Source: a virus (taxonomy: Duplodnaviria > Caudoviricetes). From it: 64,000 nucleotides of DNA. The position numbers were made by a program, and so were the translations under genes. Below the pieces are notes generated by a model. It did not search any database, was not told where the DNA came from, and saw only the letters and a list, made by a program, of their open reading frames with translations. Of this stretch, positions 2,970 through 61,914 are shown piece after piece. Positions within the stretch are counted from its first letter, which is position 1; each line of letters starts with the position of its first letter. The stretch spans positions 1,086 through 65,085 of the IMG/VR virus record IMGVR_UViG_3300031992_000091. One strand, 5' to 3'.

Positions 2970-2995
2970 TCATAAAAGGACCTGAAAATTTTGCG
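2970..2995 (-). promoter_or_regulatory. Phage promoter motif copy P1
   Basis: CGCAAAATTTTCAGGTCCTTTTATGA, identical to the copy at 61889-61914. It lies upstream of the nuclease-nuclease-RNAP operon. Confidence 0.75.
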
Positions 2996-3067
2996 AAGTA
3001 AAAAAGAGCAAAAGAAAAGGCCCTACCGATCTGGTAGAGCCCAAAATGAGTCTGAGAATGGCAATTA

Positions 3068-3427
3068 GTTTTTAGATATCTATTTATTAGCTCTGGCCAA
3101 AAACCCACTTTTTTTTGTAAACTAATATATATTATTATTTTTTTTTATCGCGTATTAACTCTAAATAAAAGTGGGTTTTTGGCCATAAGAGGTTTTTAGA
3201 TATCTAAAAACTAGTAAATCGATATCTAAAAACCCAATTTCGTGGCCATTTTCAAAGTGGGCAAAAGTGGCCATTGGCCACAAAAGTGGGCAGAACAGAG
3301 GGTTTTTAGATATCTATTTACTATTTTCGTTCTTCCGTAAAATTCAATGGTCAAAAAGTTTTGGCCAAAGCCCATTTTTGACCGACAAAAGTGGGCAGAA
3401 AAGAGGGGTTTTTAGATATCGATTTAC
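3068..3427. repeat. Non-coding palindrome/iteron cluster, probable replication origin or RHH-binding region
   Basis: Five GATATC-centred boxes: 3068-3082, the perfect palindrome GTTTTTAGATATCTAAAAAC at 3192-3211, 3214-3235, 3300-3321 and 3406-3427. A 19-bp inverted repeat TGGCCAAAAACCCACTTTT (3094-3112 / 3167-3185) flanks an AT-rich spacer. AAAAGTGGG boxes recur. Confidence 0.7.
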
Positions 3428-3600
3428 TCGTCCAAAAATAACCATAAACGCTCTCTAATGAGCCTCGTAATAGGAATTTTTCTCATCCCGGCAGCCTCTT
3501 TCAGACGTTCGTACTCGCTTTCAGAGACTCGAAAAGGTATCAAATGATCCCTCTTCTCAGAGTCGTTTTTCCTTGGTCTTCCGCCTATGTTTTTCTTCAC
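3424..3600 (-). CDS. Ribbon-helix-helix (CopG/MobC-like) DNA-binding protein, 58 aa
   Basis: Below the ORF-track cutoff. GAGGAGG RBS and GTG start. VKKNIGGRPRKNDSEKRDHLIPFRVSESEYERLKEAAGMRKIPITRLIRERLWLFLDE fits the strand-helix-helix RHH pattern. Confidence 0.65.
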   Translation of the reverse strand: MKKNIGGRPRKNDSEKRDHLIPFRVSESEYERLKEAAGMRKIPITRLIRERLWLFLDE

Positions 3601-3623
3601 ACCAATCCTCCTCAGAATATCAA

Positions 3624-5291
3624 TCAGAGTTCGAACGTCTTAATATGTCCAGTCTTAGAACCCTTGACCTCCATCTTCTTGCCACGAATATCCATGTAGA
3701 TTTCGCCATCTTTGTAGTTCGTAGCAACAATAGCACCACGATCACGGAAGACGTTGTAAGTAGATTTACGGCCACTTCCATTCTCAGAACCATGGTAGTT
3801 ACAGAAAGCAAGAATACATTTGACAGCATCAACGTAATCCTTTGTGATACCATCACGATCGCCATGCCAACGAATCTTCATAACATGACACATGATCTCC
3901 TCAATACGATCCTTGAAAGCCTCAAGCATCTGTCTCTGAGCTTCAACCTGAGCGTCACCACCCATATCAAATATCCATGTACCGTCCACCACAATGTGAT
4001 AGATCATGGACATGTTGTTAATGAAGTGATGTCCTTCTTTTTCCTTCAGCTTCTTAGCGTCAGCCTGGAAGATAGCCTTACACTCAAAGCATCCGATCTT
4101 GATGACGTCTCCAACACTGACGTAAGAATATCCAACACCATGAGCAAGGCATTTAGCAGCTTGTCTGGCAATTCTGTTAGCATATTCAGGCTGATAACGT
4201 CTAACACCGGTTTGATCAGGGAAGTAGACATGACCGACTTCGAACTCATCAAGGATTGCTTTCTTCTCGTCATTGTTCAAATATCCATAATGATCAGAAT
4301 GATCGTGTGAGATGATAACAGCATCGATCTTCTTAACACCGGCAGCCTTCAGTTTCTTGATTGTATCAGTGTGGTTCATTCCGGTATCGACCAGAATGAC
4401 ATGTTTAATAGTCTTGTTATCAGACTCGTACTGGATAAATGCTGTGGCATCACCGTACTTTTCATGATCGCTTTCCCAGAAACGTATCGCCCATACCCTA
4501 ACATAGGGAGGCAAGTCACCCTCCTTTCCTGGTTCAGACGGGTATTTGGGTCTGATTCTACCTTTGATAGGCTTGAAACTCTTACGATAACGTTTGTGAA
4601 CACCGCCATTGTAGTTGCCTGAGATGAAATAATGACCGCCAAGAGCGAATTCAGAATGATTCGGATTACCTTTTTCGTCCTGATAGATGACAATATCACC
4701 AAATTTCAGATCGTCAGATCCAGATTTCCAAGTTCCTTTCTCATTAGCCTTGTCCATAAGGATTTTAGCGCGCTTTCCATAGCCGATAAGATCCAAATAT
4801 CCAGCCTGATAGAAGATAAGATCCAGAAATGCTGTGCACCAGGAGTCTGTCTTGCTCATTTTGGAGTGATTTGTGCCGTGTTTAGCGTTAAAAACATCAA
4901 TGAAGGCATTATAGTTCTTTATGAAGTCGCTGTGAGCCGTTTCAGAATCGATGTAAGGCTTCATCAGATCATAAACTTTCTCAGCTCCATACTTCTCAGC
5001 AGGCTTTTTGTCATGTTCTCCAGGCACTGTGACCATGATTGCCTTAAGAAAAGTGTTTTTATAAGACTTATATGGGTCTTTTAAGTGCAATCCGGCATTA
5101 TGAATATCTTTCAATCGCTTTTCTGCGTTAGATTTGATAGAAAAAGCACCTGATTGGACCTTCCATAATCCATTTATCTGAATTACAGCAGCAGGAAACT
5201 TTTGTGCTCTCACTACAGCGGCAGTTTTTTCAGCATTTGGCCTGTTTTTATACGCTCCAAGCTGAATTTTATACAGAGTTTTTGTGGCCAT
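3624..5291 (-). CDS. Cell-wall hydrolase: SPOR + CHAP-like amidase + metallo-beta-lactamase-fold (ComEC/Pce-like) domain
   Basis: YKIQLGAYK/WKVQSGAFS SPOR half-repeats; SWCTAF...GDIVIY...HSEF...ISGN CHAP-like Cys/His; LVDTG...IISHDHSDH...GGDA...WHG MBL motifs. Confidence 0.75.
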   Translation of the reverse strand: MATKTLYKIQLGAYKNRPNAEKTAAVVRAQKFPAAVIQINGLWKVQSGAFSIKSNAEKRLKDIHNAGLHLKDPYKSYKNTFLKAIMVTVPGEHDKKPAEKYGAEKVYDLMKPYIDSETAHSDFIKNYNAFIDVFNAKHGTNHSKMSKTDSWCTAFLDLIFYQAGYLDLIGYGKRAKILMDKANEKGTWKSGSDDLKFGDIVIYQDEKGNPNHSEFALGGHYFISGNYNGGVHKRYRKSFKPIKGRIRPKYPSEPGKEGDLPPYVRVWAIRFWESDHEKYGDATAFIQYESDNKTIKHVILVDTGMNHTDTIKKLKAAGVKKIDAVIISHDHSDHYGYLNNDEKKAILDEFEVGHVYFPDQTGVRRYQPEYANRIARQAAKCLAHGVGYSYVSVGDVIKIGCFECKAIFQADAKKLKEKEGHHFINNMSMIYHIVVDGTWIFDMGGDAQVEAQRQMLEAFKDRIEEIMCHVMKIRWHGDRDGITKDYVDAVKCILAFCNYHGSENGSGRKSTYNVFRDRGAIVATNYKDGEIYMDIRGKKMEVKGSKTGHIKTFEL

Positions 5292-5445
5292 GTCGTAAAT
5301 TCCTCATTTTTTCAACTAAAAAGTCAACTAAAAAGTTAGCAAAAAAACAAATGGCACAACCAATTACGATTGCGCCTCCGATGTAAACAAACGATACGAG
5401 TATAATAAGCCCGTAAAATGTCAATAAAGTGCCTAATGTAACCAT
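5269..5445 (-). CDS. Small hydrophobic membrane protein (58 aa), possible holin
   Basis: GAGGT RBS and ATG. MVTLGTLLTFYGLIILVSFVYIGGAIVIGCAICFFANFLVDFLVEKMRNLRHGHKNSV lies between the two lysin genes. Confidence 0.55.
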   Translation of the reverse strand: MVTLGTLLTFYGLIILVSFVYIGGAIVIGCAICFFANFLVDFLVEKMRNLRHGHKNSV

Positions 5446-5447
5446 AC

Positions 5448-6815
5448 TTACCTCGACTTAATAAGAATGTTGAACCCGGATTTCCTGGCTCGTGCAGCCT
5501 CAGCATTCAGCAGATCTGTTACACCGTCATAATACTGACTGCGGACACGATAATATCCATCAAATTTCTCGATCTCAGCCTCAAGACCCTTGTTTTTGAC
5601 CTCGTACAGCCTCTTTTTGGCGTTATTTTTGCTGCTGAAAGCGCCGTACTGAATATAATAATTAAGCTCAGCGATGTTTACAGCCTTGGAATTGGCCGAA
5701 AACTTGTCGTAGAACTCCTTACCAGCGCTTGTACGAGCGTTCAGAGCCTTTGTAATACCGGATTTATCGTTATTTACGACCACAGCAGGCCTCTCATACT
5801 CCCTCAGAACGACGTTTGACGCCTCTTTGATGGAGTTTGCCTTGCTGAGAACCTTCATGACATGACTGTAGGCCCCCAGCTCCTCCCAAAGGAAGTCAAG
5901 CTGCATCTTCAGATCATCGATAGAGACCATTCTCTTCTCTGCAAAATATAAAAGCGCCTGCTTACGGCTCCACCAAGTCCACTGTGCAAGACCATAACCA
6001 GCCTTGTCATGGATGAAATTGGCGTATGTGCCATCGTTGACAGCCTTGGTGTAGCTCTTGTCAGTCCAGCCTTCCTTGATCTCGAAGGAGTTCTGAAGGT
6101 TGTTTGGTCTCAAAGCGGATTCACACTGCAGATTACCCATGAGACCAGCAACAGCATAGTCGTTCAAGCCTTTCTTGCTGAGATAATTCCAGATGAAGTA
6201 AGCGCGATCGTCTTCTGTAGGAATATCAATACCGGTCTTAGGGTGCTCGGCGATCTTGTTCTCATTCGGAAGGACTGTCTTACTGAGCTTAGCGTTCACT
6301 TCATCGGCAAACTTACCAAGACGGTTGTACAGCCAGTCGCCAGGGCAAGCCTTAGCAGCAAACCACCTGTGTACGGTGATCACCATCTCGTTGGACTTAG
6401 GCTTGTAGTTCAGCGTGGTCTTCTTGTCGTTAAACCACAGCATTTTGTTCTTGCCATATCGCTGGCAAACATCCACACCAAGAGCGACCAGAGCGTCCCA
6501 GACCTGCTGATTCATTGCGTACGGATGCTTGGTATCGGATGCACACTCGACGGTGATGGCACGGTTGTCGTTCCACGCAGAACTAGTACACCACGATCTG
6601 TCTTCTTCATCCACATAGCCGGCGATCACACCAGCAGTGCCGATGCCATAGTTGGATGAAGCCTGATAAGACGACTTAGCAAAGAGCTCACCACAACGCT
6701 TGGCAGACAGCTGTCCGACCATGCAGTGAGGCGTGAAGTAGATCACTTTCTCAGTTCTCTGCTTGTTACGATTGGGCGACGGAATAAATACAGTTGCAAG
6801 TTTCGAAAAGGACAT
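5448..6815 (-). CDS. Endolysin: Amidase_2 + phage-tail-lysozyme-like domain + SPOR
   Basis: TPHCMVG...SSNYGIG...ITVECA...HRWFAAKACPG (Zn amidase); AGLMGNLQCES...GYGLAQWT...QLDFL...YERP (lysozyme-like); C-terminal YYIQYGAFS SPOR. Confidence 0.85.
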   Translation of the reverse strand: MSFSKLATVFIPSPNRNKQRTEKVIYFTPHCMVGQLSAKRCGELFAKSSYQASSNYGIGTAGVIAGYVDEEDRSWCTSSAWNDNRAITVECASDTKHPYAMNQQVWDALVALGVDVCQRYGKNKMLWFNDKKTTLNYKPKSNEMVITVHRWFAAKACPGDWLYNRLGKFADEVNAKLSKTVLPNENKIAEHPKTGIDIPTEDDRAYFIWNYLSKKGLNDYAVAGLMGNLQCESALRPNNLQNSFEIKEGWTDKSYTKAVNDGTYANFIHDKAGYGLAQWTWWSRKQALLYFAEKRMVSIDDLKMQLDFLWEELGAYSHVMKVLSKANSIKEASNVVLREYERPAVVVNNDKSGITKALNARTSAGKEFYDKFSANSKAVNIAELNYYIQYGAFSSKNNAKKRLYEVKNKGLEAEIEKFDGYYRVRSQYYDGVTDLLNAEAARARKSGFNILIKSR

Positions 6816-6901
6816 ATCTTTCCCTCCAAAAATATAAAAAGGAAGAGAGCCTGCAAAGCTAGCAGACCCTCTTCAACAACGGTAACTTATTTAAATATCA
6901 A

Positions 6902-6973
6902 TCAGTTCCAACTTCCAAGTATGATGCCGACCAGAACACCAGCAAAAAACGCTATACAGTAGTTCACAATCAT
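6902..6973 (-). CDS. 23-aa hydrophobic peptide
   Basis: AAGGAG RBS; MIVNYCIAFFAGVLVGIILGSWN; followed by a terminator-like hairpin. Confidence 0.45.
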   Translation of the reverse strand: MIVNYCIAFFAGVLVGIILGSWN

Positions 6974-6985
6974 ATTGTCTCCTTA

Positions 6986-8536: not shown

Positions 8537-8538
8537 AG

Positions 8539-8898
8539 TTATTCTCCTTTCTGAATATCAATGTTGACAATCTTATCCTGTTTAGCCAGATCTTTGAGCA
8601 TACGGTTGATCCAGCCAAATACCATAGACGTTTCCTGGTCATTCAGATTGTGGTCAACACTGAGGTTGTCATAGAAGTTTCCGTTCCAAGCCTCAATATC
8701 GCTGACTCGAACCGCCGGCTCTTCCTCAGTCGCCTCAGTGCTAGGCATGGTATTGCGATCATGTCTAGCGTTCTCAAGAGTGGAATCGATCATCTCGAGT
8801 TTTCTCCCGAGATAGTTGACGTTACGGTTAATAATTTTGAGATTTGTAGAAATATCCTTTAATGCTGCAATCATTTCCCTACTCTGATGATCTGTCAT
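8539..8898 (-). CDS. Hypothetical protein
   Basis: ORF with AAGGAGG RBS, co-oriented with its neighbours. Confidence 0.65.
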   Translation of the reverse strand: MTDHQSREMIAALKDISTNLKIINRNVNYLGRKLEMIDSTLENARHDRNTMPSTEATEEEPAVRVSDIEAWNGNFYDNLSVDHNLNDQETSMVFGWINRMLKDLAKQDKIVNIDIQKGE

Positions 8899-8969
8899 AA
8901 ATCCTCCTTAAATATCAAAAACAAAAGGGCCCACGCTCTTTTCGAGTGTGAACCCCGTGTTTATAGTTC

Positions 8970-9368: not shown

Positions 9369-9406
9369 TTTGTTCCTCCTTGTAAAATATCAATTACCGA
9401 TAGTTA

Positions 9407-9432
9407 CCATAAAGGGCTTTGTGAATTCTGCG
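9407..9432 (-). promoter_or_regulatory. Phage promoter motif P2
   Basis: CGCAGAATTCACAAAGCCCTTTATGG. Confidence 0.75.
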
Positions 9433-9501
9433 AAAAAAGCAAAAGGACCTGCATAGCGTTTTGCTATACAAGCCCTTTTGGGTTAGGTCGTTAACTGTTA
9501 C

Positions 9502-9887: not shown

Positions 9888-9913
9888 CTATAATAGAAGA
9901 AGTTAGTTTCGCG
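9888..9913 (-). promoter_or_regulatory. Phage promoter motif P3
   Basis: CGCGAAACTAACTTCTTCTATTATAG. Confidence 0.7.
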
Positions 9914-14421: not shown

Positions 14422-14447
14422 CCATAAAGGAGCATGCAAATTTTGCG
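14422..14447 (-). promoter_or_regulatory. Phage promoter motif P4
   Basis: CGCAAAATTTGCATGCTCCTTTATGG, directly after a hairpin plus T-tract. Confidence 0.75.
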
Positions 14448-14850: not shown

Positions 14851-14876
14851 CTATAAGGAGGATTGTTTATTTGGCG
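14851..14876 (-). promoter_or_regulatory. Phage promoter motif P5
   Basis: CGCCAAATAAACAATCCTCCTTATAG, overlapping the helicase stop. Confidence 0.65.
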
Positions 14877-16990: not shown

Positions 16991-17917
16991 TTACTTAGTA
17001 AACGAATCAAGCCACTTCTTCCAACCATACTTGGCATTTCTGAATGACTTCTCATGCGCCGCCATCGGTCCGTGAACAAGGTCCGCCGTACGTCCTCTAC
17101 GTTTGTACATGAAATCCATGCACATTCCAGTGTACGTAACATACAGCACGAACGTGTTCCAAATCAGGTACCATTTGGCAAGTTTCTTGAAAATATTCAT
17201 TTTGTCCTCCTTATTGGTTTCAAAATAGTTGCTACGTTAATAGTTACCTATAAGGAGGTTTGTTAATTTCGCGAAAGCAGAAGACCCATCGTAAATATCA
17301 CGATGAGCCTCCGCTCAGAATTTTACTCTTCTTCGTCTTCCTTTTTCTTCAGGAATGGAATCTTGATTTTGGGCAGCTCGATAAGCCCGATCTTGACATA
17401 GAGCCAGATACAATAAATTGTGGTAATAATACTGCATACCCCACACATCTTGAAATATCTTCTCCATGTTACCGGTGTGTCAAGCCATTTCTTAATCATT
17501 TTGTTTCCTCCTTATAAAAGTTGATTTGAATTGTTACTTCTATAATGGAGGATGTAAATTATGCGAAAAAGCAAAAGCCTCTGCAAATATCATTTCGATA
17601 CTTACAGAGGCCAGTGCTAATTATTTGTCGCTAATCTTTTTTGCTACGAATTTGTACTGTTTCAGTTCATCAGACCATTGGTCTTTAACAATATACTCAA
17701 AATGCTTCTCACCATGATACCTGGTCTCTCTATCGATGGCGTCTAAGACTTTCCACTTGCCTCGATCTTCTCCTTCGGCATATGCTTCTTTACGAATCTT
17801 TTCTCTTTCAGCATCCTCATGAGCAGACAAGGCAATGATCGCCATGACGGCACAAAAGCCACCAGCAGCATAAGTTACAACGTTTTTGAGTAATCCAAAT
17901 CCAGTTCCGTTTGTCAT
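16991..17917 (-). CDS. Three single-gene cassettes encoding small single-pass membrane proteins (16991-17200, 17323-17499, 17621-17917)
   Basis: Each has its own promoter motif, AAGGAGG RBS, one hydrophobic segment and a downstream hairpin terminator. Confidence 0.7.
17248..17273 (-). promoter_or_regulatory. Phage promoter motif P6
   Basis: CGCGAAATTAACAAACCTCCTTATAG. Confidence 0.75.
17540..17565 (-). promoter_or_regulatory. Phage promoter motif P7
   Basis: CGCATAATTTACATCCTCCATTATAG. Confidence 0.75.
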
Positions 17918-17958: not shown

Positions 17959-17984
17959 TCATAAAGGCCGTTGTTAATGTTGCG
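17959..17984 (-). promoter_or_regulatory. Phage promoter motif P8
   Basis: CGCAACATTAACAACGGCCTTTATGA. Confidence 0.75.
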
Positions 17985-18817: not shown

Positions 18818-18843
18818 CTATAAAGGAAGTTGCTAATTACGCG
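18818..18843 (-). promoter_or_regulatory. Phage promoter motif P9
   Basis: CGCGTAATTAGCAACTTCCTTTATAG, overlapping the polymerase stop. Confidence 0.7.
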
Positions 18844-25019: not shown

Positions 25020-25628
25020 TCAATCGAGTGCTTCTGCTCTAGGCAGTTTGATCAAATATCCGTCTCTGTCACGAACCACTGAGGCGCTTCTCAGATCGGT
25101 CCAGCCATAACGGTTGTCTGTTGTCTTCCCGGTGATGCCAACCAGATCATAGAAATCAGCGACACTGACCATCTTGTAATCTTGCAGAAGTTCATCCATT
25201 CTTGCAAGAACTTCATCTGCTTCTTCTCGGCTATCGAGTATTACATCGTCATAGTCGTACGATCTCTGTCGTCTGTCAGACTCTCTTGAGCCTACACCAG
25301 GTCGATCATAATAACTCCTGTAAGATACGCGCTCTGCGTTACCTCTGGGTCGGCGTCCACCGTTTTTACCCCAGAGGAACATGTCCAGAGCGTTCGTTAC
25401 CATATCAGAGAATGTCTTCTTTACTGCAGGAACAAGAACGTCGTTCCAAATATAATTTTTAACGGTGCCAGCATCCTCCTGGATGAAGGCGTCCATGAAT
25501 TTTCTAAAACCAGATTTCTTCTTGGACTTTACTGAGCCTTTAGTAATCCGCTCGACCTTCTTTCCAGAAGATTTCTTTTCCTCTGTATCTTTTTTGGCGC
25601 TGTCAGATTTATTTCTGTAATCTTCCAA
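25020..25628 (-). CDS. Hypothetical protein with a C-terminal VSVADFYDLVG...GW domain
   Basis: C-terminal motif shared with neighbouring paralogs. Confidence 0.6.
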   Translation of the reverse strand: MEDYRNKSDSAKKDTEEKKSSGKKVERITKGSVKSKKKSGFRKFMDAFIQEDAGTVKNYIWNDVLVPAVKKTFSDMVTNALDMFLWGKNGGRRPRGNAERVSYRSYYDRPGVGSRESDRRQRSYDYDDVILDSREEADEVLARMDELLQDYKMVSVADFYDLVGITGKTTDNRYGWTDLRSASVVRDRDGYLIKLPRAEALD

Positions 25629-26353: not shown

Positions 26354-26379
26354 CTATAATATCCGTTGTTAATTGTGCG
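26354..26379 (-). promoter_or_regulatory. Phage promoter motif P10
   Basis: CGCACAATTAACAACGGATATTATAG. Confidence 0.75.
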
Positions 26380-27472: not shown

Positions 27473-27547
27473 GAAAGACCTAGTAGGATTCGAACCTACT
27501 TTCTCTACCATTGCTGGTAGCGTCCACCCCTTGGACCGAAGTCTTTC
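27473..27547 (-). ncRNA. tRNA-like RNA (75 nt) lacking an anticodon loop
   Basis: Acceptor-like GAAAGAC/GTCTTTC; D-arm GTCC-AAGGGGT-GGAC; CTACCA-GCAA-TGGTAG; T-arm GTAGG-TTCGAAT-CCTAC. Starts at promoter P11 and ends at a T7 tract. Confidence 0.7.
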
Positions 27548-27572
27548 CATAATAGTCGTTGTAAATTTTGCG
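27547..27572 (-). promoter_or_regulatory. Phage promoter motif P11
   Basis: CGCAAAATTTACAACGACTATTATGG. Confidence 0.8.
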
Positions 27573-29413: not shown

Positions 29414-29471
29414 GAGAAACAGCAACAATCGATTTCTCGATCTAGCCGCAAATAAGCCGTCGCTGTCTCTC
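29414..29471 (-). ncRNA. 58-nt structured RNA (three-way junction)
   Basis: 13-bp closing stem GAGAGACAGCGAC/GTTGCTGTTTCTC and an internal GATCGA-GAAA-TCGATT tetraloop hairpin. Starts at promoter P12 and is followed by T5. Confidence 0.5.
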
Positions 29472-29496
29472 CACAATACCGTTTGTAAATTTTGCG
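29471..29496 (-). promoter_or_regulatory. Phage promoter motif P12
   Basis: CGCAAAATTTACAAACGGTATTGTGG (TTGT variant). Confidence 0.7.
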
Positions 29497-30614: not shown

Positions 30615-30640
30615 CTATAATGCCGTATGTAAATTCTGCG
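30615..30640 (-). promoter_or_regulatory. Phage promoter motif P13
   Basis: CGCAGAATTTACATACGGCATTATAG. Confidence 0.8.
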
Positions 30641-30937: not shown

Positions 30938-30963
30938 CCATAATGGTGAATGTAAATCGTGCG
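30938..30963 (-). promoter_or_regulatory. Phage promoter motif P14
   Basis: CGCACGATTTACATTCACCATTATGG. Confidence 0.75.
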
Positions 30964-31009: not shown

Positions 31010-32828
31010 TCACATCAGATCTTTTACGATCCTTTCAAGTTCTTCCTTAGACATCTTTACAGTCATATCGAGATGGAGCGTTACTCCTTCTTCAGAGTCC
31101 TCGATTGCAAGATCGTTGATACCCAAGTCAGCTTTGATACCAGCCTTCTTGGTAACACCGAATGCAATCGCCTTTGATAAAAGGGTCTTCATCCATCCTG
31201 TATTCAATAAAAATCTCATAATTATCCTCCTTTTATTGGAAAATTTATTAGAAAATAGATGTTTCTTCTTCATAATATGACCTGTAATTTTCGCGCTCTA
31301 AATGGGGCAATGATCAAAGCAAGTTTCCCAGGGTTTTCGTTTAAGCGGTTTCATCTTCAATGCCCACATAATCTGTCTGATAGTTACCGTTGGATAGCAT
31401 CCGTTTTTGCAAGGTCCTGCCATCTTTTTGAAGTATTCGAGGAATCCGGGATGTAAATATAAGTCGTTTCTTAAATTGTCGTCTATGGCATTCCACCAAG
31501 TTGATTTCCTATCTTCTCTGTATCTCTGCTGTATTACCGCCAGACCTAAATCACCAATCTTATACAGCGTGCAGGCGTAATACACAGGATGGTCACAAAT
31601 ATAAGTCTCACCATACATCGGGACAGAGATGTCAGGTTTCTCATAGTGGTATCTCATATATACTCCTTTGCGAAAAACAAAAAGCCCTGCAAATATCGCT
31701 TAGATACTTACAGGGCCGGTTGTCGAGTTACCAGAAGCTTAATACTTATTAAAGTCTATAAACTTCTGGACACCTCTGATGAGATTTTTCGCCGTACCAG
31801 AAGCGATCACGCCTCCACTTTCAAGCACCGCCGACCACTTGCCGACAATTACAAAGGTTCCGATCTTGACTGCGTTGGTTGCAACGTCGGCCAAGAGTTT
31901 CGTTTTAAATTCTTTGTGTTGCTGTGCCATCTGCTGCTTACGGAGTTCGTTATCTGCCTGACGCTTCTCGATTTCCTCGATCCGTCTTTGATAGGCGTCC
32001 TCGTACTCGTCATCAGCTTTGGCCTGCTCCATTCTGATTCGATACATCTTGGTCATGTTGTCCACGCATTCAGCGTACTCCTTCGAGTCTTTCGGAAGAG
32101 TGTCCAAATGCTCGAGCGAAGCCGCTACAGCTTTGTCGTACAGCGCTCTGATCTCCTCATTCGCATTTTCCATAAGTTACTCCTTTCATAAATATAAAGA
32201 TTTTCGGTTACTCATAATGGAGCTTGCACATTTCGCGTTTTGACACGAAACATGACCTCAGAATTCTTTGCCAGTTCCTCGGGGGTTAACTCTGTATCAA
32301 GAAACAAATATGCTTCTCCGTCCTGCGTATAGATCAGAATAGTTCCTGCTGTATCAATTGATTTGACCGAATGCACAGTTTCTTCGTATCCTATGTGCAA
32401 CCACACTCCGACCAAAACGCCCACAAGAGCAACAAAAATAAAACACAATGTATCAATTACCATCCATAAATACCTCCTTAAAATGAATTTCTGATTTTCC
32501 CATCCGGAAATTTTTTGGATTCGAAAAAGAAAAACAGCCTTGCAGATATTGTTTTCAAATATCATACAAAGCTGTTCGTCTTTCAGAATACAACCGCTTC
32601 CCTAACGGGGAGCAGGGTCAATGCTTCCATGGTTCTACGGTCGCCGTAAATCATCGGTGTCCATCGACCAGTGATCGTGTACTCGTATTCGCCAGTGTAA
32701 ACTACCTGGTCGGCTACTAATCCAAGCCTTCCAAGAGCAACACCCATGTCATGAGCATAGTCCTGATCAACGACAACCTTAAAGTTTTTAGGTTTCCGTT
32801 TAAACCATTTTAATCCTTTTATTCCCAT
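31010..32828 (-). CDS. Five cassette genes (31010-31219, 31298-31657, 31739-32173, 32212-32463, 32583-32828), all hypothetical
   Basis: Each has an AGGAG RBS; most have a promoter motif upstream and a hairpin terminator downstream. Confidence 0.7.
31270..31295 (-). promoter_or_regulatory. Phage promoter motif P15
   Basis: CGCGAAAATTACAGGTCATATTATGA. Confidence 0.75.
32212..32237 (-). promoter_or_regulatory. Phage promoter motif P16
   Basis: CGCGAAATGTGCAAGCTCCATTATGA. Confidence 0.7.
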
Positions 32829-32859: not shown

Positions 32860-32887
32860 CTATAATAGAGGATGTAAATTTGGTGCG
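32860..32887 (-). promoter_or_regulatory. Phage promoter motif P17 (+2 nt spacer variant)
   Basis: CGCACCAAATTTACATCCTCTATTATAG. Confidence 0.65.
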
Positions 32888-32935: not shown

Positions 32936-33017
32936 GAAAAGGTCAACGGAATCGAACCGTCCACTAGTAAACTAGTCGCGCCCTCATTTTAACAATGCTC
33001 CATACGCTTTCCTTCTC
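32936..33017 (-). ncRNA. Second tRNA-like RNA (~82 nt)
   Basis: Closing stem GAGAAGG/CCTTTTC, T-arm GACGG-TTCGATT-CCGTT, and two further arms (ACTAG-TTTA-CTAGT; GCGT..CATT-GTTAA-AATG..GCGC). Lies downstream of promoter variant P18. Confidence 0.55.
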
Positions 33018-33041
33018 ACATAAGCAGCTGTAAAATGCGCG
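33017..33041 (-). promoter_or_regulatory. Phage promoter motif P18 (short-spacer variant)
   Basis: CGCGCATTTTACAGCTGCTTATGTG. Confidence 0.55.
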
Positions 33042-33217: not shown

Positions 33218-33268
33218 AATAAAAATCCTCCTTTAACAATAAAAATAAGTTTTTAATGGTTATCTTTC

Positions 33269-33294
33269 TCATAATAGAGTGTGTAAATTTCGCG
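33269..33294 (-). promoter_or_regulatory. Phage promoter motif P19
   Basis: CGCGAAATTTACACACTCTATTATGA. Confidence 0.8.
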
Positions 33295-33307
33295 CAAAAA
33301 AAAAAAA

Positions 33308-33399
33308 AAGAAGGCCTGATGGGAGGGTCTCACTCCATCAGGAAGGTAGTGTCTTTCAACATACTACTATTCCTACAAGCCTCACTTACTTCCTTCTTC
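33308..33399 (-). ncRNA. ~92-nt structured RNA
   Basis: Closing AAGAAGG/CCTTCTT; GTAG..TGTT-GAAA-GACA-CTAC; CCTGATGG..TGAGACC..CCATCAGG. Starts at promoter P20 and ends in a long T-tract; no ORF. Confidence 0.5.
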
Positions 33400-33423
33400 A
33401 TAATACTCTTTGTAAATTTAGCG
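33398..33423 (-). promoter_or_regulatory. Phage promoter motif P20
   Basis: CGCTAAATTTACAAAGAGTATTATGA. Confidence 0.75.
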
Positions 33424-33840
33424 CACTCCACTAAGCACGAAATAGAACTTCCGCCTCCTGTCGTAAAACATGTCTCGTTCACATGGTATACCATACAGAG
33501 ACTTCAGCACCACAAATGTAGTTCCCTCGGTAACAGCTTTGAGAATATAACTGTAAAGCTCTGGATCGGCGGCCATAGCAGACTGCTCAACCATACGCAT
33601 GTAGTCGCTCAACAGTTTCCTCTGAATAGCAATCTCTGCAGTCCGATCGGCTATCTTGGAGGCATTCACTCGCAAAATATCAGTCCCACGAGAAGCCAGA
33701 CCTACCGATCCATCAAGTTCTGCTAACTTCCGTTTCCACTCAGGATACTGCAGAGCAAAATATCTCAGCTCCAGGTATCTATATTTTGGAAGCCACCATT
33801 TGTTAGTTTTAGACAGTTCCTTAGACAAAAAATCACCCAT
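33418..33840 (-). CDS. Putative transcription regulator (ArpU/RinA-like helical protein)
   Basis: Size, C-terminal HTH-like segment (FVVLKSLYGIPCERDMFYDRRRKF) and position ahead of the cassette array. The family call is weak. Confidence 0.4.
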   Translation of the reverse strand: MGDFLSKELSKTNKWWLPKYRYLELRYFALQYPEWKRKLAELDGSVGLASRGTDILRVNASKIADRTAEIAIQRKLLSDYMRMVEQSAMAADPELYSYILKAVTEGTTFVVLKSLYGIPCERDMFYDRRRKFYFVLSGVR

Positions 33841-33919: not shown

Positions 33920-34100
33920 AATTTTCTACACAATTTTTACACAAATATAAGTCTGAAATAGGCTCAAATCACGACCTGAGACCCGCATAAAACCTTACTC
34001 GGACACCTCAGCGTATTACAATGCCTAATTTCATTTCAGTCTATTCTCCTTTAAATATAAGTCTCTCGGATAACTCTACACAGATTTTACACAAGATTCG
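33920..34100. other. Probable attP
   Basis: Tandem TACACA arm-type repeats on both sides (33924-33946 and 34076-34097). They flank a minus-strand RBS + ATGAAATTAGGCATTGTA (MKLGIV, 34017-34034). The site is directly downstream of the integrase. Confidence 0.6.
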
Positions 34101-35236
34101 AACAACTCAACCCCCGCACGCAGGCTCTCGTCCGTGACGTGTACGTACCTGTCCATGGTAGTCTTAATGCTGGCGTGACCCAGGAGCTTCTGTAAGGTCT
34201 TTGGCGGCATACCTCGCTCGATTGCTCTGGTAGCATATGTGTGTCTGAGAGCGTGCATACAGAACCTCTTAATCCCAGCCTCGTCGCAAAGCTTATACAG
34301 ATGCGTGTCATACGAACTGTTCTTTGCAGGCATACCAGTACGCCAGTTCACAAATATAAGTTCTTTCATGTTAAACGACTTGAGTGTGCCTGAGCGCCGA
34401 TCGAGATAGCTCAACGTCTGATCCAGCTTTGGTGATTCTTTCCGTTCTGAATCTCTAACCTCTTGCAAAATATCATACGCCATGGACGTGAGTGGTATAG
34501 TCCTGTAGCTTGACTGAGTCTTTGTCGGACCAGCTCTCCAGACACCGGAAGAATATCGGTATTCCAGAGTCTTGGTAATCGAGAGTGTGTGCTTCTCCCA
34601 GTCTACACAGTCCCAGGTAAGTCCGATAAGCTCGCCTGTACGGAGTCCTGTCTCAAGAATCAGAGTGTACTGTCTGTAGTTGTGTGATCTCTTTGCTGCT
34701 TCAAGAAATCTGGTCTGTTCTTCGATTGTGAGGAAGTGAATATCATCCGGAGACTTCCTCGGTTTGTTTACTTTGATACCTGTGAGAGGATGCTTGTCGA
34801 TCAGATCGTTGTTCAGAGCGGCTTTGAATAGAGTACCCATGGTAATGTAGGTCTGAACGATTGAGCTGGTTGCGTACTGCGGTTCCATCTGATTCAGAAC
34901 CTGCTTGCAGTGCATCGGCTTGAGTTCAGCCAGGTAAATATCACCGATGTACGGACCTACGTTGTAGTGGTAACGCTCTGCGTAGTTTCGTCTGGTATTA
35001 GGAGCCAGGTCGCTGATCAGATTGGTCATCCAGTATTGATACCATTGGTCAACAGTCATTCCTCGTTTTGACTTCGGTTTCTTGTCGAGCTCTTTTAACC
35101 ATGCCTTAGCCTCTTTAACAGTCTTGAAGTAAGAGCCGAAACTCTGTCCGTGCTGTGTGCATCTGGCAAAATATAACCCGTCTTTCCTCTGACAGACACC
35201 TTTTCCAAGTTCCTTTCCTTTTAAATCTTTTCCCAA
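34076..35236 (-). CDS. int: Tyrosine integrase
   Basis: [27 protein letters not shown]. Start reassigned to the TTG after AAGGAGG ([13 protein letters not shown]...). Confidence 0.95.
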
Positions 35237-35269
35237 CGGACACCTCCTTGATAGAGTCCGCCCCGAGCC

Positions 35270-35278
35270 AGTATAGCA
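35270..35278 (-). promoter_or_regulatory. Extended -10 host sigma-A promoter candidate for the integrase
   Basis: TGCTATACT immediately after the terminator at ~35290-35335. Confidence 0.4.
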
Positions 35279-35360
35279 CGGCGGGCGAAAAAATAAAAGG
35301 GACAGTAAACCTTGCGGCAAACCATCCCTTTCATATGACTCTACCACTATACATGAGTAT

Positions 35361-38107
35361 TTAGGTGGTTGGGTCTGGCGTATGAATATAACACCCGTTT
35401 TTAATCGGGTTGCACTGGCTGCTGAACAGTATTGCACCATGCTCAGCGTATGTAGATACTGCTGCACGGCTCATGACCTCATGATACTTGGACTCCCCTT
35501 TAAGACGGGCTTTCTCTTCGACCTCGTCGTAAAGCCAGAATACATCGTGTTCCAACTCGCCAGCAGCAGATTTCCGAACTTCCGTTACGTAGTATTGGTA
35601 CATGTGTTACTCCTTATGCGGTCTGCCTAATCGTTAATTGTGGTGCATAGACGTAATAACCAGACCGGCTTCTTCCATATACAGCCACTGTTGCATTTGC
35701 AGGAATCGCTACACCTGTGAGGTGATTATTCTGAACATGGTTTGTCCACGTTGTATTCTCACTTCCATATGCAGCGCCATTGATGTAAAGCTGAGACCCC
35801 CACGTTTGTGATGTGTTTGACCTTGCACAACTCCAGTAAACGTCATAAATTCCTGCTGTCTCACAAGTTAGCGAAGTGATTGAACCTAATGCCGTATTAT
35901 TCCGTCTTGTAGTCCCTTGTGCGACCTGTGTGTTCATTGACGCACCTGCGGGGGTGGGGACATTGACCGTTACACTGCTATATCCATCAGCGGAATCATC
36001 GGATGCGGAATACGTGCCGTTTGCTGTGATGGATTTGGTTATTAGTGTTGCGGACCCGCCACCACTTGAAGTTTGTTTTTCCAGTTTTAGCGTATGCGTT
36101 CCAGACGTTCTTGCTACTCCGTTTAGTGCCCCGCCACCATAGTTATACAAGCAGAAAGGCTCCCCTGTGCCATCATCCGTTCCGTCAGTAAGACCATGGT
36201 TGCCGATATACCACAACCATCCTTCGTGTATATTTGGGTAGCATGTATATTCTGTTCCGTCCCACGTTACTCGCCACGTTTCACCAGCAACAAAGTAAAG
36301 GCTTGATAATGACGGAATAGAAATCGTTTTGTCAGATGCTGCGGTTATGGAACCATCATAGTATGTTTCATAAGTTGCTCCGCCACCTGAAATCTGTGCT
36401 ATCAGGTCTGCCAAATCATCGCTGTTTGCTCCTGACGGGACAGACACTCCTTTTGCTCCGATTGCAGTTAATGCGGCTGATACATTATCACGTATTCTTA
36501 TAACCTGGCGTCCGGTTGGAGTGCTGTTTAAATATTCTTCTGTGCTTTCATAAGCAGGCAAAATATCACCTCCTTAAATCGCGGCAAGTGCAATCTCGAT
36601 GTCGTTGGTCAGGCTGACTGTTCCTCCGCTTGTGTGTCCTGCGGGAATACTGTATGAGGTAGTTGTCATACCGTCAATCGTGCCAGAAATCGCTCCATTT
36701 TCGGGCATAGAGCCTTCGATCTTGACTGCCGCTCCGTTGCTATTGGAATGTGCAGATGTTCCTGCAAGCAGATTCGCCGCTACTGCATCGTCCCCGGTAG
36801 TATCACCGTAATGTGCGGGAATAGCAGCGACCGTGACTTTACTCAGGACTTTACCTGCTGTGGGAGTGATATCCTGAGAGGATGCGGACGGAGTTGCGGT
36901 CTTTGTCTCCAGTACGATATTTACTGTACCAGAACCGTTGTGCTTACCTTCGGGGACGGTGTAACTCTGATTGTCTGTGGTAGCATCGAGGGTTTTGCTG
37001 ACCGACCCAACGTTTGGCATTGTACCAGGAACTACATTGCCCTCCGCGTCAACTATGATCTTATTGGCGAGTACATCTCCCGCCCCTGCATTGACAGACG
37101 ATACGTCCTGATATGCGTCAGGGATGGGAGCTACGGTTACGGCAGACAGACCGTAGTAGCCAGAATCGGGAGCGATGGATTGCTGTGATTTTGTGGGCGT
37201 TGCTGTCTTACTCTGCAGTGTGTAGTTACCGCCTCCAGACACGCCGGAAACCGTACCGGTACCGTCATGCAGTCCTGCGGGGATCGTGTATGTGTCACCT
37301 TCCTGTACAGTCGCAGTTACTCCGCCGCGGTTTACAATACCGTCAAAAGCATCCGCAAGAGCGGGAAGTTTGTCGGTGGATGTTCCGATACCGAGCTCTA
37401 CAGCTTTTGTGCGGAGTTTGTTTCGTGCCGTCTGTATTCTGGTAATTTCTGTTGCAATACTCATGCTTTTTCTCCTATATAGTCTGAAGTAATGCGGCAA
37501 TATTTCCAATTTCTGTATATACTGCTGCCGCGGAAATCGGGCGCGTATTGTCCTGTTCTACTGCATTGGCTTTTGCCACTGACAGCACGCCAGACTGCGT
37601 TATTTGCAAATCTTCTCCAACGATGATCCCACCGAGCGAAATTGTGGTAGCAGGACGCAGAACCGTCCCGCCCACAACTACCGTCTGCCCAAGTGCTCCA
37701 CTTGCTGTGATATCACCGGACAGGCTTGCTTTGGCAGTTATGTTGCCTGATAAATAGCCTTTTGCGGTAATGTCTTTAGCCATTTACATCACCTCATTTT
37801 TCTCCGTGTTTTCTACCCTGATTTTGTCGGGAATGCCATAAACTTTGTAGCGTTCGCCGTTTGCTACCACATGCATATCGAGTGAGAGCACCTCTCCTGC
37901 GGTAAAGGCAAGGGTCTCTTCTTGTGTCCAGTGATAGGCAAGCGTGTCTCCGCTGATAATCATGTCAGACAGTCCGAGTTCGATTTTCTCTGTTCTGCGC
38001 TTGATAATGAGCGAGACTGCGGAAATATCTGCTACAGAAAAATCGGCAATATCGGAGAAATCGACAATCAGTGACGGAGTCGTGCCTCTTACAATTACAT
38101 CTGCCAT
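35361..38107 (-). CDS. Accessory tail-fibre/adhesin-like gene cluster (35361-35603, 35614-36561, 36574-37464, 37475-37783, 37784-38107)
   Basis: G/T/S-rich beta-repeat proteins: three Y.IPAG.H.G.GTV-type repeats, [20 protein letters not shown]. The 37784 product is BppU-N-like. Confidence 0.55.
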
Positions 38108-55278: not shown

Positions 55279-55293
55279 AGGAGCACCTCCTTA

Positions 55294-58435: not shown

Positions 58436-58449
58436 TTTGAATTCTCCCT

Positions 58450-59325
58450 TTACTTTCTAGTGGCCTGTTTATAAGCTGTATAGAAACCAAGTATTGATGC
58501 GCCAACACCAGCAAGAGCTCCAGCGGTTTCTATATACTCCATTGTCTTTGATCGCCCAGAATTGTATTGTTTCTTAGCGACGTTGCGAAATGCTTCTTCC
58601 GCCTGGTATCGGTTAACGTAATCTCTAAGTTCTTTCTCCGAGTAATGAGAGAGATCAAGAGACGCTGCCTTTTGCTCAGCCTTTCGCTCATTGGATTTTT
58701 CCATCATGTTGACAATTCCGGTAGAAGCTCCTTTAGTAGCGTCTAAAGCGGATTTGGTCAAGTTTAACCTGGCGTTAAGCTTTTCGTTATACTTGGCCAT
58801 TTTGTTGTCGTATTCGGCTTTCTCGGCATTAAAGTTCTTGTTTTCGTAGTCATAAATGCCTTTAGCTCTATTAAATTTTTGATAAGACTCGGTGCTGGTC
58901 ATAACGTCTTCTGGCACTTTTGGTCGTTCTGGTGCTTTCTTTGTAAAAGCTTCGGGTTTATCCACTTTGTTGTTATTCAACTTGTATAAAGCTGCCGCGC
59001 TACCAGCAATACCAGCAATACCAGCCAATCCAGCAAGTTCTGATACTCGACCTCTACCTGCAGATTTTGTGTTATCACCGGTCATTTGCCTAAATCTGGC
59101 GTTAAGATCATTCGGATTAACAGGCTCATCCGTTGTAGCTCGTTCAACAGTTGGAGTTTTCTTTTTAACAAGAAATCCGCCACGTTCTGATTTGGTGGCT
59201 TTCCTCTGAGCCTTATCAACTCGTTTTTGTCCTAATTTTGTAAGTGATCCGTCCTTATTTTGGAATCGCCTTACACCCCATCGCTGACCTTTAATGCCAT
59301 GATGGTAAAGTTCATCGTAATACAT
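58450..59325 (-). CDS. HHG-tag protein 1 (putative internal head protein)
   Basis: MYYDELYHHGIKGQRWGVRRFQNKDGSLT N-terminus, then a low-complexity helical body. Confidence 0.6.
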   Translation of the reverse strand: MYYDELYHHGIKGQRWGVRRFQNKDGSLTKLGQKRVDKAQRKATKSERGGFLVKKKTPTVERATTDEPVNPNDLNARFRQMTGDNTKSAGRGRVSELAGLAGIAGIAGSAAALYKLNNNKVDKPEAFTKKAPERPKVPEDVMTSTESYQKFNRAKGIYDYENKNFNAEKAEYDNKMAKYNEKLNARLNLTKSALDATKGASTGIVNMMEKSNERKAEQKAASLDLSHYSEKELRDYVNRYQAEEAFRNVAKKQYNSGRSKTMEYIETAGALAGVGASILGFYTAYKQATRK

Positions 59326-61076
59326 TATTCGAATGCCTCTCTGTTCAACTTATATGCCACATAGGCATCCATCATAGCGGCAACAGCATCAATCTTCTGA
59401 TCGTATCGCCGCTTATAAAGTTTTCTGTTACCGTTTGTATCCTCCAAAGTGATACAGTTACCCATCGCAAATTTCATAAGTTCCTCGTCAAACAAAAGAA
59501 GCCGCTCCTCAGCAAGTTTCTTTAACTCACCAAGAGGAACGGATTCTGTACGGGCACCCTGAATCACCTTCTCTATCCCGTAAGGAGAATTTTCTTTTGC
59601 CCAACGCTCTACGAAATCTTTTGCGTTGTATGGATCGTAACCAAAACACCTAACATCATACTGATTGTCATCAATGTATTTGATTAGATCTTCATACACG
59701 TCAATCATGTCAAGAACAGTGCCTGGCATGATGATTAAACTTCCCTCGTCTATAAACTTGTCATACTGCTGACGCAAAGATGGATGAAGTTTGAATAGTG
59801 TATGTTCTGTTATGTAATTGTGTGTCTTTACTCCGAATGACCCATTTTGAAAAGGGAATAGAAATGTGAAAGAACAGAAGTCATCACCCATTGACAAGTC
59901 GCCGCCCATAGCACATGGTAGCTGCCAGAACTCTCTTTTTCGGTGTAAGAGTGTTTCTTCATATGTGAAGAAGTATGTATGACCTTCCGTGGGGATACCA
60001 AATCTCTTCGCCAAGATTTCATTCCTAGCCGAAGGGACGTTTTTCATCTTTTGGACTTCTTCCTGATAGGTCTCATAAGAAACTGTGAGATCGAGATTAG
60101 GGTTTGCTTTAACCCACATGTCCGGATTGTCAACTTCCTTAATATTGTCAAGTTTGTACCACCAAATCGAGACATGAGGATTGTTATACTTACCGGTAAG
60201 AATGTCCATCAGCTCCATCTTAATAGTGTCGCCAATACCGTTTCGGGTCGTTCCTTCTGAACTGGTGGCTAAGATGATATAGTCAGGAGCCAACCCCTTT
60301 GCTCCACCCTGCTGAATAGCGGTAATCGGGTTTTCAGGAAGATCACCAGAAAGCCATTCATCAAGCGTCGCACATTTGACTCTCAGTCCCTGAAGTTTGT
60401 CAATCTTGAGCGGACGAATCTCCAGGTAACTATTAGTAAAGTTGTTCTCGATACCCTTTTTGGAAGAATATAGATGCTTTCTATTCATCCGGTTTCCAGT
60501 AGTGTTCTGAACAGAACCCTGAGTCATTAGCTGGAACACCGGACCTTTAGCTCGTGTAATGGCTGTAGCAAAAGGCTGCATTACTTCCTCAGACTGTTTC
60601 ATTGTCGGAGAGGTAGTTATCTGATGTGTGGTAGATCTGTCTACAACGAGTGTGTAAGCCTGTACGAATGTATCGTATAGTGACTTAGCAGCGCCTCGCC
60701 CCACGATCAAATACTGAATATTGATAAGACGTTTCTTTATTCGCTTTGTGACATAGTGTCCACCGGAACCATCTCCGTTCGGTTTGTATACGCTTTTCTC
60801 AATAAAATAATACCAACCATAAAGTTGCTCTGCCCAAAGCTTAAAAGAAAAGAGGACATGTACGTCCCCTCCATCAGTAAGCGTCATTTCGTTTTCGCAG
60901 AAGTAAATCCAGCCCTCTACAACTGATTCATCATAGTAAATTTTAGGATCATCAATCAGCTTGTCGATCCTATTCATCTCTAGAGAGATTTGTTCATTGA
61001 CAGGAATCTCTCCTCTGATTACGGCATCTCGAAACTCGCCGTAATACTTCGGTACAGCAGTGTTCGATAGTGCCAT
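59325..61076 (-). CDS. terL: Terminase large subunit
   Basis: VGRGAAKS Walker A, TLDEW Walker B, ATSSEG motif III, GGDLS..DD and KIDAVAAMMDA nuclease motifs. Confidence 0.95.
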   Translation of the reverse strand: MALSNTAVPKYYGEFRDAVIRGEIPVNEQISLEMNRIDKLIDDPKIYYDESVVEGWIYFCENEMTLTDGGDVHVLFSFKLWAEQLYGWYYFIEKSVYKPNGDGSGGHYVTKRIKKRLINIQYLIVGRGAAKSLYDTFVQAYTLVVDRSTTHQITTSPTMKQSEEVMQPFATAITRAKGPVFQLMTQGSVQNTTGNRMNRKHLYSSKKGIENNFTNSYLEIRPLKIDKLQGLRVKCATLDEWLSGDLPENPITAIQQGGAKGLAPDYIILATSSEGTTRNGIGDTIKMELMDILTGKYNNPHVSIWWYKLDNIKEVDNPDMWVKANPNLDLTVSYETYQEEVQKMKNVPSARNEILAKRFGIPTEGHTYFFTYEETLLHRKREFWQLPCAMGGDLSMGDDFCSFTFLFPFQNGSFGVKTHNYITEHTLFKLHPSLRQQYDKFIDEGSLIIMPGTVLDMIDVYEDLIKYIDDNQYDVRCFGYDPYNAKDFVERWAKENSPYGIEKVIQGARTESVPLGELKKLAEERLLLFDEELMKFAMGNCITLEDTNGNRKLYKRRYDQKIDAVAAMMDAYVAYKLNREAFE

Positions 61077-61094
61077 TTTGAATTGTTCCTTTAT

Positions 61095-61823
61095 TCAGTT
61101 ATATCTGGTAAATCCTTTATTAGCCGTTCTCTTTTCCGGGTCAAACATTATCAATGGTAAGTCAGCCATGTTTGAAACCCAATCGTTAGGATCGACTATA
61201 GCTCCGTATTTGTTCTGTTTTTTATAGTCCGCTATAACTTCGTCAACATGCTTTGATAATGTATCAGTAACAAATTTATCTAGTCGGTCTCTAGACGTGT
61301 TTTGCTTACTCCATTCGTCAAGCTCGGTATCAAAGTATTTTCCATCAAAGTCCTCGATATAGTCCGATCTAGCTTCTGCATCTTTAAAACGCTTTTCAAG
61401 TTCTTTTCTATTGTTCAAATCGGACATCAAAGTATCCGCGTCTTTACCACCATATTTATTAATAAGATCCTCGACTACTTTTTCACCACGTTTAACGCGA
61501 ACGTCCTGAGTTAATTCCTTTGTATGTTCCCCATACATTTTGTGATAATCAAGAAACAAACCACCTTCGGAACCTAATTCTTGATAAGTTTCTCTGTCTT
61601 TATCGGTAACACTCATATACTGGTGCCCGGTAGTTTGTTTATCATCAGCATTGGCTATGCGATATGCTTTAGTTCCTTTTTCCAGAACAAAGCTATCTTC
61701 ATCACCGTTATCGTCATAACGTTTCTTACCGGCGCTGGTTAATGTTCCATCTTTATTCTGGAATCTCCTGACGCCCCATTTCATCCCCAATATACCGAAA
61801 TGATATAATTCATCTTGTCGCAT
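61095..61823 (-). CDS. HHG-tag protein 2
   Basis: MRQDELYHFGILGMKWGVRRFQNKDGTLT; true start at 61823. Confidence 0.65.
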   Translation of the reverse strand: MRQDELYHFGILGMKWGVRRFQNKDGTLTSAGKKRYDDNGDEDSFVLEKGTKAYRIANADDKQTTGHQYMSVTDKDRETYQELGSEGGLFLDYHKMYGEHTKELTQDVRVKRGEKVVEDLINKYGGKDADTLMSDLNNRKELEKRFKDAEARSDYIEDFDGKYFDTELDEWSKQNTSRDRLDKFVTDTLSKHVDEVIADYKKQNKYGAIVDPNDWVSNMADLPLIMFDPEKRTANKGFTRYN

Positions 61824-61888
61824 GTTTTCTCCAAATAAAAAAAAAAAAGAAGAGAAAGCAGCAATCGCCACTTTATACTCTCTCCCTT

Positions 61889-61914
61889 TCATAAAAGGAC
61901 CTGAAAATTTTGCG
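61889..61914 (-). promoter_or_regulatory. Phage promoter motif P21 (identical to P1)
   Basis: CGCAAAATTTTCAGGTCCTTTTATGA. Confidence 0.75.

Follow-up and report, generated by a model that had tools for sequence, protein, structure and literature searches.

The DNA examined here is a 64-kb window, bases 1086-65085 of the 65,085-bp phage genome IMGVR_UViG_3300031992_000091, in which a short motif, CGC-N17-TTATRR, recurs between genes and in front of the operon that encodes the phage's own RNA polymerase. It is a phage of rumen Lachnospiraceae; sheep gut (rumen-type) metagenome runs contain its DNA, and near-identical polymerase genes are present on IMG/VR contigs and in one Butyrivibrio genome bin. 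All genes of the 65-kb genome are carried on the minus strand and include a siphovirus-type set of terminase, tape measure, endolysin and tyrosine integrase. A megablast comparison of 20 kb of the phage with deposited phages gave no match.

The open reading frame that contains the peptide GADFDGD encodes a protein of 907 residues, in which the peptide occupies residues 517-523. Over its full length this protein matches phrog_4291 ('RNA-dependent RNA polymerase', E = 0). An alignment with 92 diverse homologues shows D519, D521, D523, Q280, R282, K292 and G293 to be invariant, and the same holds for H10, G12, S24-R26, G30 and G32 in an N-terminal peptide. Sequence and profile searches against the PDB gave no polymerase match better than E ~1, and only a fold search succeeded. 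With an AlphaFold model of the protein (pLDDT 84.5, pTM 0.75, residues 1-39 disordered), Foldseek ranked QDE-1 first (E 2.5e-9), followed by Thermus phage P32 gp64 (4.5e-6) and P74 gp62, plant RDR2 (1e-5) and P23-45 gp96 (3.7e-4), while cellular beta' and Rpb1 appeared further down. On the strength of these matches, above all those to QDE-1 and the Thermus phage polymerases, the modelled protein is classified as a single-chain two-barrel (double-psi beta-barrel) polymerase. The DxDGD metal-binding loop of the beta'-like barrel is present.

Pfam sees only helix-turn-helix domains in this protein, with strong matches at residues 869-907 (HTH_38, HTH_7, GerE, Sigma70_r4_2) and weaker ones at 81-117. 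There are three similar modules of this kind, two of them N-terminal and one C-terminal, the latter resembling sigma region 4 or LuxR-type domains. The family is very large: a word index lists at least 8000 homologues, clustering at 50% identity gives 906 representatives with E below 1e-30, and members are found in 250 deposited phage genomes from Arthrobacter, Gordonia, Streptomyces, Lactococcus, Faecalibacterium and others. Database labels for them are 'HTH DNA-binding protein' and 'RNA-dependent RNA polymerase'. A preprint (10.1101/842583) arrived at the same view of the enzyme from HHpred and described it as a signature gene of an actinophage supercluster and of Lactococcus and Faecalibacterium phages; it does not address promoters. 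Among 30 further phage proteins scanned, neither a sigma factor nor a second polymerase turned up.

The exact pattern CGC-N17-TTATRR matches the window 19 times, always on the minus, that is, coding strand. Shuffled controls contain 1.82 matches on average and 6 at most, and none of 100 shuffles reaches 19. A weight matrix spanning motif positions -1 to 29, where position 1 is the C of CGC, scores 20 sites at 26.7-40.3 bits (20-38 bits when each site is left out in turn) and a variant with a spacing shorter by two at 33016 at 18 bits. The opposite strand, scanned over all 65 kb of the genome, has no match of 8 bits or more, in line with the claim of the initial annotation that every copy lies on the coding strand. 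An unseeded expectation-maximisation motif finder applied to the intergenic regions returns the same motif. The initial annotation had counted 21 copies, 19 of them with identical spacing and two deviating by two nucleotides (nt), and this count was right: 18 of the 21 positions match the exact pattern, while 29471 reads TTGT at the same spacing, 32860 is the +2 variant and 33017 the -2 variant. One additional exact match, at 25306, was set aside as probably due to chance because its 9 bits fall inside the range of the shuffles, which reach 11.5 bits; it lies within an open reading frame.

The motif is tripartite and 26-29 bases long. Its anatomy is CGC at positions 1-3, AAATTTACA at 5-13 and YWTTAT at 19-24, followed by purines at 25-27. 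Since the information peaks at CGC (1-3), AAATT (5-9), CA (12-13) and TTAT (21-24), it can be described as three elements spaced by about 10 bp, or one turn of DNA. Non-coding DNA makes up only 8.3% of the sequence, and yet it holds 20 of the 21 motif centres (binomial P = 5e-21). Where a protein gene follows, position 25 mostly lies 33-53 nt from the start codon, and a hairpin with T-tract precedes 10 of the 21 copies (nine within 23 nt according to a terminator scan, and the copy at 17248 by direct reading). The 26-bp copies at 2970 and 61889, which we refer to as late-class, are identical.

Does the motif travel with the polymerase? Co-occurrence was compared among relatives that bear the enzyme. 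Of 26 IMG/VR relatives (45-99% polymerase identity), 22 have a copy ~950 bp in front of the polymerase gene, the sequence of which drifts as the enzyme diverges; the remaining four have no upstream match of 12 bits or more. Four distant relatives were examined in full, and each has both the motif and this polymerase. De novo searches recovered 14 copies in Faecalibacterium phage FP_oengus, 9-11 in Lactococcus phage P078, 11-13 in Lactococcus phage 1706 and 10 in Arthrobacter phage CapnMurica, without a single copy on the opposite strand in any of them. The aligned consensuses share ACA at positions 11-13 (only CA in FP_oengus), a block resembling TATAAT at 19-24 and purines at 25-27. At positions 1-3, three phages have CGC, 1706 has CAC and P078 has TTT, and the block 19-24 is TATAAT in P078 and CapnMurica, TATAGT in 1706 and CTTTAT in nearly all FP_oengus sites. 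The hosts of the motif-bearing phages belong to two phyla, and G+C content ranges from 33.5% (P078) to ~49% (CapnMurica). De novo searches on the short IMG/VR loci L013-L033, which offer few intergenic regions, returned only T-tract or ribosome-binding-site motifs and spurious two-copy motifs. Co-occurrence with the GADFDGD gene, which the initial annotation had named as a check, is thus seen in the same register both in the four complete comparisons and at most of the IMG/VR loci.

In candidate hosts the motif is at chance level, and it is not a host signal. Four genomes (Lachnospiraceae or Butyrivibrio, 3.0-3.4 Mb) contain 2-8 matches each to CGC-N17-TTATRR versus 4-10 for a reversed control, and three of the matches fall in phage parts of those genomes; a control pattern with one N too many gave 11 matches. 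The window shows no enrichment of sigma-70-like sites either (22 versus 20.5 expected, and 35 versus 39 expected).

The RNAs that follow the motif give an indication of where transcription begins. We infer that +1 is the purine at position 25 or 26, since with 19-24 as the -10 box a sigma-70 enzyme would begin near position 31 and truncate these RNAs. A start at 25 would put TTAT at -4 to -1, and a start at 26 at -5 to -2; TTTACA would occupy roughly -17 to -12 and CGC roughly -24 to -22. Six RNAs were folded downstream of motif copies. In five of them the closing helix starts at position 25 and ends before a T-tract; the sixth RNA follows the -2 variant at 33016, and its helix closes at 1-3 nt from position 25. 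The tRNA-like RNA after the copy at 27547 has an acceptor-like stem from position 26 with a sharp energy optimum, and the 5' end that ARAGORN gives to a tRNA-like gene of FP_oengus (2935) is position 26 of its motif copy. The leader hairpins of late-class copies behave in the same way: in 20 of 21 leaders, taken from this phage and 18 related loci and including 19 before the polymerase operon, the hairpin starts at 25-26, even though the set takes in FP_oengus and CapnMurica and the leader sequences are unrelated. The exception, at locus L031b, has a short proximal hairpin only. Free energies with forced pairs are flat upstream of 25 and fall by ~1 kcal per nt downstream; this profile has a knee at 25 without a sharp peak and is for this reason supportive only. 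The initial annotation had stated that the 5' stems begin at the last one or two bases of the motif, with TTAT at about -5 to -2 and hence unlike a sigma-70 -10 box, and the placement of the RNAs 1-2 nt after the hexamer agrees with it on all these points.

Both tRNA-like RNAs, at 27473-27549 in the window and at 2935-3006 in FP_oengus (L028), stand directly behind the motif and have aberrant anticodon loops. ARAGORN calls the FP_oengus RNA tRNA-???, whereas neither ARAGORN nor Rfam returned a match over the window.

The fold of the enzyme, the co-occurrence of motif and polymerase, the chance-level counts of the motif in candidate hosts and the predicted start site all support one interpretation: the motif is the promoter that is read by the phage's own 907-residue single-chain two-barrel RNA polymerase. 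The initial annotation had already proposed promoters of the phage RNA polymerase. From the sequence data at hand, we assign this a probability of roughly 0.8. The helix-turn-helix modules would bind the upstream elements as duplex on one face of the DNA, while the A/T-rich block adjoining +1 would melt. The motif would also drive RNA-only units that have no other promoter.

Some observations weigh against this interpretation. QDE-1, the nearest solved relative of the polymerase, is an RNA-dependent enzyme, though it also accepts DNA templates. The integrase gene has no recognisable promoter of either type, phage motif or sigma-70, and the motif occurs just two or three times in a prophage-like relative in L031. 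Three rumen metatranscriptome runs yielded parts of the phage only as contigs of 150-300 nt (depth 2-7), which reveal no start sites; one of them (33264-33506) crosses a motif copy. Moreover, the block 19-24 can be read as a host sigma-70 -10 box where it is TATAAT, as in P078 and CapnMurica, or NATTAT, as in 12 of 20 sites here, where position 20 is A and position 24 is T.

This last point leads to a host promoter of the sigma-70 type with a -10 box only, in which CGC and TTTACA would be bound by a phage activator, possibly the 907-residue helix-turn-helix protein itself. The TATAGT of 1706 fits such a view, and for Vardy, a Gordonia phage of cluster DJ, a 50-bp motif has been published with a sigma-70 -10 box assigned to it (PMC9671010). 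We nevertheless consider it unlikely. TTTACA (8-13) is only 5 bp away from the hexamer, while the spacing required for a -35 box is 16-18 bp; 8 sites here and nearly all sites of FP_oengus lack the A at -11, which is essential; and a start 6-8 nt downstream of the hexamer would truncate tRNA-like genes and leader helices. The chance-level counts in candidate host genomes speak against a host signal as well, and a role as activator only does not explain why catalytic residues are invariant in 92 homologues.

Two further readings do without a promoter, and both appear very improbable. An asymmetric operator, stoperator-like or another regulatory site at which a phage protein blocks or tunes transcription, had been the alternative of the initial annotation. 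The stoperators of Cluster A mycobacteriophages are indeed intergenic and co-oriented with transcription, as are the copies here, and this phage encodes an integrase and has an iteron array beside an RHH-like gene. The array, however, is kept in 1706 and P078, which are described as virulent or lytic (PMC4110766), and in CapnMurica, for which no integrase or repressor is annotated in the part of the genome examined. Stoperators, which are bound by a repressor and tied to lysogenic immunity, measure 13 bp versus the 26-29 bp of this tripartite motif. Furthermore, copies stand immediately after terminators and are the sole candidate start signal for RNA-only units, and there are no enriched sigma-70-like promoters that an operator could regulate. 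Equally improbable is a recombination 'boundary sequence' for the shuffling of cassettes with no role in transcription, which is how a 32-bp repeat of cluster AU phages has been interpreted (bioRxiv 10.1101/2020.01.10.891226). The joins seen in contigs of a related strain (DNA run X3), at 17569/17988, 33042/33299 and 27572/28489, coincide exactly with 5' edges of motif copies, and they delete or replace whole promoter-gene-terminator cassettes. The copies can therefore be said to act as cassette boundaries, matching the 'boundary sequence' of cluster AU. Recombination, on the other hand, needs nothing but similarity between copies and leaves the co-orientation, the fixed distance to start codons, the register kept across phyla and the position of the RNA stems unexplained. 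Cassette exchange is an expected by-product of repeated promoters, and the two roles can coexist.

If the copies are promoters, the genome falls into transcription units of quite different size (Table 1). The 18-19 copies between 33398 and 9407 would drive short promoter-gene-terminator cassettes with early, replication and lysis genes, together with four RNA-only units. The copy at 61889 would serve the 27-kb structural operon, and its identical counterpart at 2970 the endonuclease, the exonuclease, the polymerase and, past the end of the genome, the genes with which the packaging region begins; contig L010 shows this order to be contiguous. With the copy at 2970 upstream of its operon, the polymerase would be under its own promoter, a positive-feedback arrangement. 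Both late-class copies are followed by a terminator-like leader, a purine-rich hairpin with U-tract, which suggests control by attenuation or antitermination. The leader at 61835..61890 looks like a promoter-proximal terminator or attenuator.

Table 1 Polymerase gene, putative promoters (motif copies) and leader hairpins in the window
Feature	Coordinates	Strand	Remarks
RNA polymerase gene, first 682 of 907 codons	1..2048	minus	extends 675 bases past window left edge; GADFDGD at 480-500
Leader hairpin + U-tract at predicted +1 of polymerase-operon promoter	2915..2971	minus	shape kept, sequence not
Putative late-class promoter, endonuclease-exonuclease-RNA polymerase operon	2970..2995	minus	copy in corresponding position in relatives with polymerase identity as low as 45%
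Putative promoter, last copy before lysis block; terminator precedes	9407..9432	minus	
Putative promoter, 116-aa gene	9888..9913	minus	
Putative promoter, 64-aa gene; terminator precedes	14422..14447	minus	
Putative promoter at end of helicase gene, 101-aa gene downstream	14851..14876	minus	
Putative promoter, 69-aa gene; hairpin precedes	17248..17273	minus	
Putative promoter, 58-aa gene; terminator precedes	17540..17565	minus	
Putative promoter, one-gene cassette absent from related strain	17959..17984	minus	
Putative promoter at end of 1351-aa primase/polymerase-like gene	18818..18843	minus	
Putative promoter, 74-aa gene and replication block	26354..26379	minus	
Putative promoter, top-scoring (40 bits), tRNA-like RNA	27547..27572	minus	acceptor-like stem from motif position 26
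Putative promoter with TTGT for TTAT, 60-nt closed hairpin RNA	29471..29496	minus	
Putative promoter, 90-aa gene; terminator precedes	30615..30640	minus	
Putative promoter, short open reading frame; terminator precedes	30938..30963	minus	
Putative promoter, 69-aa gene	31270..31295	minus	
Putative promoter, 144-aa gene; overlaps last codons of upstream open reading frame	32212..32237	minus	
Putative variant promoter, CGC 2 nt further upstream, 81-aa gene	32860..32887	minus	
Putative variant promoter, spacer 2 nt shorter (5 not 7 nt), RNA with T-arm-like element downstream	33016..33041	minus	18 bits
Putative promoter, 51-aa gene; directly after terminator	33269..33294	minus	
Putative promoter, RNA-only unit of ~90 nt with terminal T-tract	33398..33423	minus	
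Leader hairpin + U-tract at predicted +1 of late promoter	61835..61890	minus	dG -19.2, z -4.1
Putative late-class promoter, head/packaging/tail operon	61889..61914	minus	predicted +1 ~61890; next copies absent down to ~34076

Other features accompany these units. The tyrosine integrase gene (34076-35467) is co-oriented and closes the 27-kb structural operon; the proteins scanned include no CI-like repressor. Between the open reading frame of a 58-residue RHH-like protein and the promoter of the polymerase operon, the region 3068-3600 is filled with GATATC-centred repeats and AAAAGTGGG/TGGCCA repeats. This array may control the polymerase-operon promoter, or it may be an origin. A 9-mer, ATATTT[AG]C[AG], occurs 16 times, always on the coding strand. 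Those at 31696, 30667, 30283, 17590, 17298, 16954 and 14165 (minus) supply both the loop and the 3' arm of a terminator hairpin, as in GATATTTGCAGGGC, which precedes a T-tract. The 9-mer resembles the AATTTACA part of the promoter, and it may be a sequence-specific signal for termination or pausing.

A more far-reaching scenario can be drawn, which we regard as tentative and somewhat doubtful. Like the enzymes of N4, crAss-like phages and P23-45, the polymerase might be packed into the virion and injected, and it alone would then transcribe the whole genome without the host polymerase, its three sigma-like helix-turn-helix modules reading a promoter of three elements spaced by 10 bp. This would apply to a very large group of phages of Actinobacteria and Firmicutes, and lysogeny would be set by the firing of the self-activating polymerase operon. 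Some hints exist for this scenario. A GenBank note (ReqiPoco6 record L035, gene 106) calls the 1706 homologue, gp75, a 'structural protein', and this note is the only source for its virion association. The disordered N-terminus of the polymerase (LxHYG...SGRYPWGSG, residues 1-35) is invariant across the family, and the polymerase operon shares its exact putative promoter with the structural operon. No sigma-70-like promoters stand out anywhere in the window. Three head-module proteins (59221-59313, 61719-61811 and 62611-62703) begin with a DUF7211-like peptide, ELYHxGIxGxxWGxRR, which the polymerase N-terminus weakly resembles (Pfam E = 0.08). The N-terminal peptide of the polymerase may be a tag that targets it to the capsid.

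Once its promoter is defined in a fixed register with a predicted +1, the polymerase can be tested directly. Reading the motif as a promoter also explains intergenic repeats that had already been noticed in actinophage genomes, and it makes transcription units, including small RNA cassettes, annotatable in hundreds of phages. The system could furthermore supply a compact orthogonal polymerase-promoter pair for Gram-positive hosts.

How does this arrangement compare with what has been described? In the limited literature searched, no paper was found that defines the promoter of this polymerase family. The published readings of the copies in relatives are only those of a 'boundary sequence' or a sigma-70 -10 motif. 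The 32-bp repeat of cluster AU (bioRxiv 10.1101/2020.01.10.891226) is very probably the same element, which was recovered from CapnMurica, a phage of that cluster, with its register unchanged. Gordonia cluster DJ phages carry the same polymerase family, and the 50-bp motif of Vardy is reported with TATAAT inside (PMC9671010); this too is probably the same element. The two papers (10.1101/2020.01.10.891226, PMC9671010) mention RNA polymerase 0 times and do not link the repeat to a polymerase gene.

Among phages with related enzymes, Thermus phage P23-45 has two single-chain two-barrel polymerases, gp96, which is found in the virion and fused to the tape measure, and the non-virion gp64; its promoters, one AT-rich and one GC-rich, were mapped by ONT-cappable-seq and ChIP-seq (PMC10770324). 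Both are siphoviruses with a single-polypeptide two-barrel polymerase, and in both a phage-specific motif found by motif search travels with the enzyme among relatives. The promoter proposed here, in contrast, is predicted from sequence, the polymerases belong to different families with no match at the sequence level, and the present enzyme carries helix-turn-helix modules as fusions, while one class of motif would cover early, middle and late genes. For YonO of the Bacillus prophage SPbeta, one late operon with one mapped start has been described, and the promoter sequence was left undefined (PMC5467207). YonO is likewise a single-chain two-barrel polymerase with a DxDGD loop; it is DNA-dependent and comes from a temperate phage. 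It differs from the system described here, which would have ~21 promoters over the whole genome, and Pfam reports no helix-turn-helix fusion in YonO.

A last comparison concerns the promoters of T7, T3 and SP6. These are compact, spanning about -24 to +3, with an upstream part for specificity, an A/T-rich stretch at -4 to -1 and a purine start, and they occur in many co-oriented copies with terminators following, while the T7 polymerase gene itself is read by the host enzyme. The proposed promoter would follow the same logic of a compact, contiguous element with a purine start and many co-oriented copies. Unlike in T7, it would be read by a two-barrel enzyme instead of one with the right-hand, Pol I-like fold, and the polymerase gene stands behind its own putative promoter.

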